From Escherichia coli (GTDB taxonomy: Bacteria; Pseudomonadota; Gammaproteobacteria; Enterobacterales; Enterobacteriaceae), in NCBI RefSeq assembly GCF_003790525.1, contig NZ_CP033635.1: a stretch of DNA of 64,000 bases. One strand, 5' to 3'. Shown here piece by piece: positions 53,263 to 56,033 of this stretch. How positions within the stretch are numbered: position 1 is the stretch's first letter; every line of letters starts with the position of its first letter. Made by a program: the position numbers and the translations under genes. Under the pieces are notes generated by a model, which was given only the letters and a program-made list of their open reading frames with translations, did not search any database and was not told the DNA's origin.

Positions 53263-55854
53263 ATGCATCAATCTGGTTCTGTTTCTCTTTGTCGTTCCGC
53301 AATATCTGTTCTGGTGGCTACAGCGTTATATTCACCCATAGCATTGGCATCAACAGTTGAGTATGGTGAGACAGTTGATGGTGTTGTCCTGGAAAAAGAT
53401 ATCCAGCTGGTTTATGGGACCGCCAATAATACGAAAATCAATCCTGGCGGAGAACAGCATATTAAAGAATTTGGTATAAGTAGTAATACTGAAATTAACG
53501 GCGGGTATCAGTACATTGAAATGAATGGCACCGCAGAATACTCAGTATTAAATGATGGTTATCAAATTGTTCAAATGGGTGGCGCGGCAAACCAGACTAC
53601 CCTCAATAATGGTGTGCTACAGGTTTATGGCGCGGCGAATGAACCTACGATTAAAGGCGGGCGCTTAATCGTTGAAAAAGATGGGGGGACCGTCTTTGCC
53701 GCTATCGAAAAGGGAGGACTACTGGAGGTTAAAGAGGGGGGATTTGCGCTTGCGGTAGATCAGAAAGCAGGCGGTGCGATTAAAACAACCACGCGGGCCA
53801 TGGAGGTATTCGGAACAAACCGTCTCGGTCAGTTCGATATCAAGAATGGTATTGCTAATAATATGCTGTTGGAAAACGGCGGAAGTTTGCGAGTTGAAGA
53901 AAATGACTTCGCTTATAATACCACTGTGGATAATGGCGGCTTACTGGAGGTTATGGATGGCGGGACTGCAACTGGCGTTGATAAAAAAGCAGGCGGAAAA
54001 TTAATTGTCTCAACGAATGCGCTGGAAGTGAGTGGTACAAACAGTAAAGGCCAATTTAGTATAAAAGATGGTGTGTCAAAAAATTATGAACTGGATGATG
54101 GTTCCGGGCTCATTGTTATGGAGGACACGCAGGCCATTGATACTATCCTTGATGAGCATGCCACTATGCAATCGCTGGGAAAGGATACTGGTACGAGAGT
54201 GCAGGCAAATGCGGTATATGATCTCGGTCGATCAGATCAGAATGGAAGTATCACGTATTCCTCTAAAGCCATCTCTGAAAATATGGTTATCAACAATGGC
54301 CGCGCTAATGTCTGGGCTGGCACAATGGTTAACGTTTCAGTCAGAGGGAATGATGGCATTCTTGAGGTCATGAAGCCGCAAATAAATTATGCACCCGCTA
54401 TGTTGGTGGGTAGTGTCGTGGTTTCTGAGGGCGCTTCTTTAAGAACGCATGGTGCCGTGGATACCAGCAAAGCGGATGTTTCGCTCGATGGTAGCTCATG
54501 GACCATCATTGCCGATATCACTACGACGAACCAAAACACCCTCCTCAACTTAGCCAACCTTGCGATGTCTGACGCAAATGTGATTATGATGGATGAGCCA
54601 GTGACTCGTTCATCAGTGACGGCAAGTGCGGAAAATTTCATTACGTTGACCACCAATACCCTGTCGGGAAACGGCAATTTTTATATGCGTACCGATATGG
54701 CTAATCATCAGAGCGATCAGCTCAACGTCACCGGTCAGGCAACAGGTGATTTCAAAATATTCGTTACGGACACCGGTGCCAGCCCGGCAGCAGGAGATAG
54801 CCTTACACTGGTAACGACGGGCGGCGGTGATGCTGCATTTACGTTGGGCAATGCCGGAGGCGTTGTTGATATCGGTACGTATGAATATACCTTGCTGGAT
54901 AATGGCAACCATAGCTGGAGTCTGGCAGAGAATCGCGCGCAAATTACCCCTTCAACCACTGATGTGCTGAATATGGCGGCAGCACAACCGCTGGTATTTG
55001 ATGCAGAACTGGACACCGTGCGTGAGCGTCTTGGTAGCGTAAAAGGCGTTAATTACGATACGGCGATGTGGAGTTCGGCAATTAACACCCGCAACAACGT
55101 GACCACTGATGCGGGAGCTGGCTTTGAGCAAACATTGACGGGGCTGACGCTTGGTATCGATAGCCGTTTCTCCCGTGAAGAAAGCAGTACAATTCGCGGC
55201 TTGTTCTTTGGTTACTCTCATTCTGATATTGGTTTTGATCGCGGCGGCAAAGGCAATATCGATAGCTATACCCTGGGGGCTTATGCCGGTTGGGAGCATC
55301 AGAACGGTGCCTATGTTGATGGGGTGGTGAAAGTTGACCGTTTTGCCAACACCATCCATGGCAAGATGAGTAATGGGGCAACAGCGTTTGGCGATTACAA
55401 TAGTAACGGCGCGGGTGCTCATGTCGAGAGCGGGTTCCGTTGGGTTGACGGATTGTGGAGTGTTAGACCTTATCTGGCCTTTACCGGCTTTACCACAGAT
55501 GGTCAGGACTACACGTTATCAAACGGCATGCGCGCGGATGTGGGAAATACCCGCATATTACGGGCTGAAGCGGGAACGGCGGTAAGCTATCACATGGACC
55601 TGCAAAACGGTACGACGCTGGAACCCTGGCTGAAAGCCGCCGTACGTCAGGAATACGCCGATTCTAACCAGGTGAAAGTTAATGACGATGGCAAATTTAA
55701 TAATGATGTGGCTGGAACCCGTGGCGTTTATCAGGCTGGGATAAGGTCATCGTTTACCCCGACGTTAAGCGGTCATTTGTCAGTCAGTTATGGCAATGGC
55801 GCAGGGGTAGAATCGCCGTGGAATACTCAGGCGGGTGTGGTCTGGACGTTCTGA
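53263..55854 (+). CDS. yejO: Autotransporter adhesin-like protein YejO, 863 aa, apparently intact
   Basis: Signal peptide; passenger domain built of repeated ~60-aa beta-helix-like units (…NNGxLxVxxGGxAxxTxI…); C-terminal beta-barrel ending in WTF. Confidence 0.88.
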   Translation: MHQSGSVSLCRSAISVLVATALYSPIALASTVEYGETVDGVVLEKDIQLVYGTANNTKINPGGEQHIKEFGISSNTEINGGYQYIEMNGTAEYSVLNDGYQIVQMGGAANQTTLNNGVLQVYGAANEPTIKGGRLIVEKDGGTVFAAIEKGGLLEVKEGGFALAVDQKAGGAIKTTTRAMEVFGTNRLGQFDIKNGIANNMLLENGGSLRVEENDFAYNTTVDNGGLLEVMDGGTATGVDKKAGGKLIVSTNALEVSGTNSKGQFSIKDGVSKNYELDDGSGLIVMEDTQAIDTILDEHATMQSLGKDTGTRVQANAVYDLGRSDQNGSITYSSKAISENMVINNGRANVWAGTMVNVSVRGNDGILEVMKPQINYAPAMLVGSVVVSEGASLRTHGAVDTSKADVSLDGSSWTIIADITTTNQNTLLNLANLAMSDANVIMMDEPVTRSSVTASAENFITLTTNTLSGNGNFYMRTDMANHQSDQLNVTGQATGDFKIFVTDTGASPAAGDSLTLVTTGGGDAAFTLGNAGGVVDIGTYEYTLLDNGNHSWSLAENRAQITPSTTDVLNMAAAQPLVFDAELDTVRERLGSVKGVNYDTAMWSSAINTRNNVTTDAGAGFEQTLTGLTLGIDSRFSREESSTIRGLFFGYSHSDIGFDRGGKGNIDSYTLGAYAGWEHQNGAYVDGVVKVDRFANTIHGKMSNGATAFGDYNSNGAGAHVESGFRWVDGLWSVRPYLAFTGFTTDGQDYTLSNGMRADVGNTRILRAEAGTAVSYHMDLQNGTTLEPWLKAAVRQEYADSNQVKVNDDGKFNNDVAGTRGVYQAGIRSSFTPTLSGHLSVSYGNGAGVESPWNTQAGVVWTF

Positions 55855-55914
55855 TAACAGAAAATAAACAGGCTGTGATGTGTCACGGTCTGTTTATCGA
55901 ATTAATTGCAGATA

Positions 55915-55946
55915 TAAAAAAACCAACCGTAATGGTTGGTTTTTTC
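55915..55946. terminator. Bidirectional rho-independent terminator between yejO and tRNA-Pro
   Basis: aaaaaaccaacc-gtaat-ggttggtttttt: stem flanked by A-run and T-run. Confidence 0.8.
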
Positions 55947-55956
55947 TTGGGATTTT

Positions 55957-56033
55957 TGGTCGGCACGAGAGGATTTGAACCTCCGACCCCCGACACCCCA
56001 TGACGGTGCGCTACCAGGCTGCGCTACGTGCCG
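55957..56033 (-). tRNA. proL: tRNA-Pro (anticodon GGG), proL
   Basis: Reverse complement reads CGGCACGTAGCGCAGCCTGGTAGCGCACCGTCATGGGGTGTCGGGGGTCGGAGGTTCAAATCCTCTCGTGCCGACCA, with cloverleaf arms and encoded CCA. Confidence 0.95.

Follow-up and report, generated by a model that had tools for sequence, protein, structure and literature searches.

In Salmonella enterica, SPI-12 adjoins the tRNA gene proL (PMC7143636), and in STEC O121:H19 the same gene is a prophage site (PMC8767318). ROD34 of EAEC 042, an 8.2 kb prophage-like element with ProQ-like and PerC-like genes, resides at a tRNA-Pro gene left unnamed (PMC2808357). The autotransporter gene yejO, which lies directly at the 3' side of proL in the Escherichia coli DNA considered here, is known as an IS5-disrupted pseudogene in K-12 (PMC11005336), as a truncated gene in UPEC (PMC3426408) and as a gene missing from ST131 (PMC5654935). 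Both the proL hotspot and yejO have therefore been described already, and nothing in the locus presented below is new in kind. SPI-12 occupies the same chromosomal address, past yejM and directly at the 3' end of proL; unlike the SPI-12 region, however, the DNA studied here contains no att repeat, phage remnants or effector genes, and its sole lineage-specific gene is yejO. Similarly, P4-like or PICI-type phage satellites such as the Nissle 1917 element target the very proL 3' end that is found here, but no such satellite is present.

The window, that is, the whole 64,000-nucleotide stretch of E. coli DNA that was analysed (contig NZ_CP033635.1), displays the gene order ccmH, narP (minus), yejO (plus), proL (minus), yejM (minus), yejL (minus), and its positions 52200-56200 are 100% identical to the corresponding region of E. 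coli strain SC516, a chicken liver isolate. The features relevant to the following argument are, in order of position:

52296-52943, minus strand: narP, nitrate/nitrite response regulator (Pfam Response_reg and GerE; named narP in the SC516 annotation)
52944-53262: divergent intergenic region between narP and yejO, 36% GC
approx. 53054-55906: Escherichia-specific segment of ~2.85 kb, delimited by BLAST and MAFFT against two Citrobacter or Citrobacter-like loci (L008 and L010), with edges placed to within ~10 bp towards proL and to within tens of bp towards narP
53263-55854, plus strand: yejO, intact ORF of 863 aa, predicted AIDA-I-type, type Va autotransporter
55864-55897: hairpin with a 15-bp stem directly 3' of the yejO stop codon, from RNA folding
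55914-56002, minus strand: long att segment, made up of tRNA positions 32-77 and the 43 nt that follow, single-copy in the window
55917-55946: A-tract, CCAACC-GGTTGG hairpin and T-tract (A6/T6-flanked), from sequence, fold and conservation
55955-55971, minus strand: satellite att overlap (tRNA positions 63-77 plus 2 nt), single-copy in the window
55957-56033, minus strand: proL, tRNA-Pro(GGG), from ARAGORN, 100% identical in most Enterobacteriaceae loci
56108-57868, minus strand: yejM (pbgA/lapC), conserved gene upstream of proL

According to ARAGORN, tRNA-Pro with the anticodon GGG is the sole tRNA in the 48-64 kb part of the window. The spacer between the yejO stop codon and the 3' end of proL (55957) measures 102 bp, in line with the close adjacency from which the earlier note had started. 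This spacer is highly structured: positions 55855-55960 fold into two strong hairpins at -36.7 kcal/mol (z = -6.6). The first of them, at 55864-55897, is probably a yejO-side terminator and lies in the Escherichia-specific segment, together with yejO and the region upstream of the gene. The second, at 55917-55946, is a conserved bidirectional terminator of proL, retained in Citrobacter, Salmonella and an E. albertii-like locus. The proL terminator escaped a consensus terminator scan, probably since its A- and T-tracts pair with each other, and was confirmed by folding. On the opposite side of the tRNA gene, linkage of proL to yejM is universal in the species loci that reach beyond yejM.

YejO is predicted to be a type Va autotransporter, with a putative role as an adhesin. 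The protein combines Pfam AIDA, Pertactin and Autotransporter beta-domain matches, the last covering residues 602-841 (E = 2.7e-45), and matches the NCBIfam model autotrans_barl (TIGR01414) with 372 bits. The predicted layout is the one typical of type Va, namely, a C-terminal 12-stranded beta-barrel translocator together with a putative signal peptide and a beta-helical passenger; the N-terminus, MHQSGSVSLCRSAISVLVATALYSPIALAS, appears signal-peptide-like when judged by eye from the sequence alone. The gene is labelled “autotransporter YejO” and considered intact in the SC516 RefSeq annotation, where PGAP places its start at 53314. The AIDA repeats, the pertactin-like domain and the C-terminal beta-barrel are shared with autotransporter adhesins of the AIDA-I/Ag43 type, but YejO falls far short of the NCBIfam equivalog cut-offs for either, with 135 versus 1200 bits for Ag43 and 72 versus 1200 bits for AIDA-I. 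No experimental characterisation of YejO function was found in the literature searched. As for its nucleotide composition, yejO has a GC content of 48.5% and a GC3 of 46.6%, compared to means of 52.2% and 56.8% for the 44 ORFs of the window (GC3 z = -1.27), and ranks fourth lowest in GC3, with only a three-gene cluster at 908-4387 lying below it. The deviation is mild, so that the composition called unusual in the earlier note is indeed below the window mean, but only modestly so.

Traces of a past integration event were sought throughout the locus. The annotation lists no integrase between ccmA and rsuA, and the only ORFs of the interval are narP, yejO and yejM. The 25-nt proL 3' end is not repeated anywhere in the window, even with three mismatches allowed, and the longest exact match of the 46-nt 3' portion in 52201-55956 is 8 nt. 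A partial direct repeat of the proL 3' end, which the earlier note had proposed to look for in 52944-55956, was not detected above chance on either strand: Smith-Waterman scores of the 25- and 46-nt tRNA 3' segments did not exceed the block-shuffle expectation (160-282 of 300 shuffles reached the score), nor did the scores against the narP-yejO intergenic region and the spacer exceed the respective shuffle means. The same holds for direct and inverted repeats, such as target-site duplications or IRs, at the edges of the Escherichia-specific segment, for which 106-125 of 300 shuffles reached the observed scores. In positive controls, proL-derived repeats of 17-91 nt were readily detected at other loci. 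Pattern search and alignment therefore both bear out the impression that no att repeat is visible, as annotation does for the integrase. One candidate, obtained with the full tRNA in the narP-yejO intergenic region, is an 11-nt match to the tRNA D-arm (GCCTGGTAGCG, ~52996-53006, score 12) attained by 9 of 300 shuffles; it was rejected because an att scar would stem from the 3' end of the tRNA and because the match fails correction over nine tests. The integrase of the satellites described below served as a tblastn query against the fetched species loci rather than the window, and its matches lie at these other loci.

Comparison with other E. coli genomes shows what an occupied proL looks like. 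A 271-bp probe spanning the junction (55830-56100) is unbroken in 4,824 of 5,425 complete E. coli genomes and the junction is split in ~601 (11%), counts which reflect BLAST coverage thresholds, not genome-by-genome inspection. On the same footing, a probe for the junction between the satellite integrase gene and proL is covered at 80% or more in 450 genomes, and a prophage-side junction probe in 248, the latter being an upper bound because some of the copies reside at other loci. In O111:H8 7-15 45A, Nissle 1917 and SA53-3, an element of 9.5-13 kb is located between proL and yejO. These elements encode a 413-aa tyrosine integrase adjoining proL, an AlpA/HTH regulator, an Icd-like protein and a P4-family primase or RepA helicase, along with either capsid and small terminase proteins or ProQ/PerC-like genes, and are P4/PICI-type phage satellites, a class put at 9-12 kb for the E. 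coli genomes as a whole. The gene content of ROD34 resembles that of the SA53-3 element, and ROD34 is thus possibly a proL element as well. In 23AR0922 and NRZ99027-2, proL is followed by a small remnant with an integrase pseudogene and a lambdoid prophage of ~48 kb. The overlaps between the two junction alignments correspond to tRNA positions 63-79 (L086), 73-79 (L003) and 76-79 (L001) for the satellites, and to positions 32 to ~120 (46 nt of tRNA and 43 nt of spacer) for the lambdoid prophage array; the long att segment is duplicated around this array and also around the integrase-bearing island of Citrobacter L011. In all occupied genomes that were inspected, the native spacer and terminator are kept at the distal junction, with the 3' end of yejO, or what remains of the gene, coming next. 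Given that yejO lies beyond the distal att copy in these genomes, it is part of the flank, not cargo. In the window, by contrast with these duplicated arrangements, the att overlap is single-copy, and the site is therefore unoccupied. Collectively, these data strongly support the view that this strain has an empty attB at the proL 3' end, with its function as a landing site being predicted. Both the suspicion that proL is an island hotspot and the suggestion that it is vacant in this strain are thus upheld, the former by integrase-bearing elements in other E. coli, the latter by a whole junction matching the unsplit form found in 89% of the genomes.

To place yejO in a broader context, we compared 80 species-representative loci around yejM, a set that was returned without E. 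fergusonii, E. marmotae and Salmonella enterica. Among these, a YejO homologue is found in Escherichia only, in E. albertii, beyond an 8 kb integrase-bearing island, and no YejO-like sequence is detectable within 10 kb of proL in the 78 non-Escherichia species loci (tblastn, E <= 1e-5). An E. albertii-like contig with flanks of ~90% DNA identity displays the order ccmH-narP-yejO-proL-yejM and lacks an island. The YejO encoded there is 76% identical at the protein level, and the DNA is 89.7% identical in the 3' half and 81.6% in the passenger half, which would fit vertical descent since the split, with a fast-evolving passenger domain. Consistently, among the best 120 relatives retrieved from 5.8 billion proteins, at identities down to 57%, all that carry a source name belong to E. 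coli or Escherichia, many others being nameless; neither a donor nor a related island with a yejO-like gene was found among these 120. The presence of yejO is thus variable between genera, essentially fixed within E. coli and common to the E. albertii-like genomes. The earlier note had considered universal synteny of yejO and narP with proL across Enterobacteriaceae as the observation that would speak against an integration remnant; instead, yejO is restricted to Escherichia, and in two Citrobacter loci proL stands beside narP.

In the latter two loci (L008 and L010), the proL-narP spacing is 208 bp, and other Citrobacter contain unrelated inserts of 1.1-3.5 kb at this position. One of these (L011) encodes a 337-aa integrase and is associated with a 91-nt att repeat, another (L015), 2.8 kb in size, lacks an integrase and has just a partial repeat of 28 nt, and two more (L006 and L012) have no repeat whatsoever. 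In Salmonella diarizonae (L018), the tRNA 3' end is repeated over 32 nt at the far end of a 5.6 kb insert, and a 38-nt repeat is present in L057. When the first sizeable ORF that follows proL was compared between 70 species loci, ~45 unrelated clusters emerged, and conservation past the proL terminator stops at reference position ~120-128 (window ~55906-55914) in E. coli as well as in the insert-bearing loci. Throughout Enterobacteriaceae, a hypervariable hotspot thus follows the proL terminator, and narP, with 88-92% amino acid identity between the Citrobacter loci and the window, is its conserved far flank. Upstream of narP, the Citrobacter sequence is homologous to 52944-52980 and weakly to 53011-53053, the remainder of the intergenic region being specific to Escherichia. 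A permissive local alignment suggested a clean insertion, with the E. coli flanks abutting at a single AAAC of the Citrobacter spacer; this was ruled out by MAFFT and stricter BLAST, both of which put the end of the proL-side homology near reference position 128.

Overall, it is quite probable that the window contains an empty attB next to an old, Escherichia-specific flank gene that does not represent island cargo. The satellites and the lambdoid prophage array insert between proL and the conserved terminator copy preceding yejO, so that yejO constitutes the distal chromosomal flank of the proL att site, outside the present-day elements. The gene is the Escherichia-lineage occupant of the narP-nearest part of the hypervariable interval. 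It would have been present before the divergence of E. coli and the E. albertii-like lineage and vertically inherited thereafter, and in many lineages it is now being eroded by IS insertions, frameshifts and a 1.6 kb deletion. We infer that yejO was gained by insertion rather than lost elsewhere, a direction drawn from the two empty Citrobacter loci and from composition, not from a rooted reconstruction. The implications mainly concern annotation, in that yejO should not be labelled as part of a mobile island. Furthermore, proL of this strain would be an open landing site for the phage satellites and the lambdoid prophage family that occupy proL in approximately one in nine sequenced E. coli, and the cross-genus comparison offers a view of a tRNA-linked hotspot gathering and eroding insertions.

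A different and rather doubtful possibility is that an ancient integrase-mediated proL island has left yejO as its surviving cargo, int and the distal att having later been deleted and the rest ameliorated. The edge of the Escherichia-specific segment at ~55906 lies within ~8 bp of the points where att-flanked or integrase-bearing inserts start in Citrobacter, Salmonella and E. coli (reference 120-128), but functional constraint also ends just after the terminator, and any insertion or divergence would therefore seem to begin there. Decay intermediates exist elsewhere, as exemplified by L011, by L015, and by L006 and L012, and E. coli lacks the spacer corresponding to reference ~129-197, the outcome expected if one deletion had removed int together with the distal att; nevertheless, 52944-55956 contains no integrase remnant or tRNA-derived repeat above chance. 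The low GC3 of yejO and the 36% GC of its upstream region would suit a foreign origin, against which stands the lack of an identifiable donor or yejO-bearing related island in our search. The idea of yejO as a degenerate relic of a past integration is compatible with the confinement of the gene to Escherichia and with the direct proL-narP adjacency in two Citrobacter loci, but an integrase or att trace tying it to tRNA-directed entry was not detected, and the proL elements of today exclude yejO. That it is fossil island cargo fixed before E. coli and E. albertii separated is plausible but, on balance, rather unlikely. If it were, the edge at ~55906-55914 would be a conserved “island start” common to insertions that occurred independently in Escherichia, Citrobacter and Salmonella, and the loci would form a graded decay series from an integrase with a 91-nt repeat, through a 28-nt repeat with no integrase, to no trace at all.

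Considerably less plausible is that yejO was ancestral to the Escherichia-Citrobacter-Salmonella clade and repeatedly lost, in which case its adjacency to proL would be uninformative on horizontal transfer. Essentially all E. coli have the gene, the 4-kb ccmH-narP-yejO-proL-yejM region being matched in 5,425 of 5,426 genomes and covered at 80% or more in 4,279, and loss would be easy because yejO is readily deleted or inactivated. Against this, no yejO was detected within 10 kb of proL in any of the 78 non-Escherichia species loci, the empty Citrobacter spacers are short, at 208 bp, and free of yejO fragments, no source-named sequence among the best 120 relatives comes from outside Escherichia, and GC3 is lower than in the neighbouring genes. 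Finally, a sequence change that prevents proL from functioning as attB in this strain is extremely improbable, as the window tRNA is 100% identical to that of occupied strains over positions 1-79 and the spacer is 98-100% identical to their distal junction copies.

Erosion of yejO is evident within the species. In addition to the IS5 interruption seen in K-12, IS1 and IS2 insertions are found in yejO of other E. coli strains, and the gene contains frameshifts or internal stops in O111, SA53-3 and 23AR0922. In R2, Nissle and similar strains, a 1.64 kb deletion leaves only the 5' 0.9 kb of yejO. A 701-bp probe is covered at 80% or more in 3,783 genomes, compared to 4,824 for the short junction probe, and ~1,000 genomes are therefore estimated to carry the allele with the 3' deletion. 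These findings agree with the reports on UPEC and ST131.

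At the narP end of the variable interval that starts downstream of proL, the tRNA-Pro(GGG) gene, 11 nt at ~52996-53006 match the proL D-arm (GCCTGGTAGCG). These nucleotides, situated upstream of narP, form part of a small inverted repeat. The match is marginal, its score being reached by 9 of 300 shuffled sequences, and we rejected it as an att scar because it corresponds to the wrong part of the tRNA. An imperfect distal att copy was noted in the proL satellite of the O111:H8 locus L001 (23740-23770 vs 33265-33295 of that locus). This distal copy reads ...GATTTTTG-CACGAGAG... 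and lacks GTCGG, which is found in the tRNA-proximal copy of the same satellite as well as in the empty proL site.

The spacer between yejO and proL (55855-55960) contains two strong hairpins, with a folding energy of -36.7 kcal/mol (z = -6.6) in RNA folding analysis. The proL-proximal member of the pair, at 55917-55946, is kept across genera and, judging from its A6 ... T6 flanks, looks bidirectional; a consensus terminator scan did not pick up this hairpin.

Different inserts and neighbours were observed in other genera and species. In Citrobacter, copies of a 91-nt att repeat flank the 337-aa lambda-type integrase (L011, 13279-14292) of one proL hotspot insert, and another insert includes a 472-aa ORF inside a 40% GC segment (L015, 12861-14279). 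An E. albertii-like contig has three additional cytochrome c/flavoprotein genes in the yejK-rplY interval (L087, 14415-17139), none of which is present in the window. In Enterobacter and relatives (L022, L031, L045, L046, and others), the next gene lies ~500 bp downstream of proL and encodes a ~180-aa product, putatively ecotin-like as judged by eye. Given that eco and proL are separated by the nap-ccm-narP block in E. coli, an ecotin-like identity of this protein would mean that the entire block is missing in these genomes and, hence, that the block itself belongs to the variable region downstream of proL.

Elsewhere in the window, GC content is markedly low (36-41%) in three neighbouring ORFs at 908-4387, located immediately upstream of an 875-aa ORF (4887-7514):

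908-1606, minus strand, GntR/FCD regulator
1844-3172, plus strand, MFS transporter
3173-4387, plus strand, enolase-superfamily MR/MLE dehydratase

Their GC3 values are 29-37% (z = -2.4 to -3.4 relative to the window ORFs), a compositional deviation far greater than that of yejO, and the trio looks like a horizontally acquired cassette for sugar-acid utilisation.
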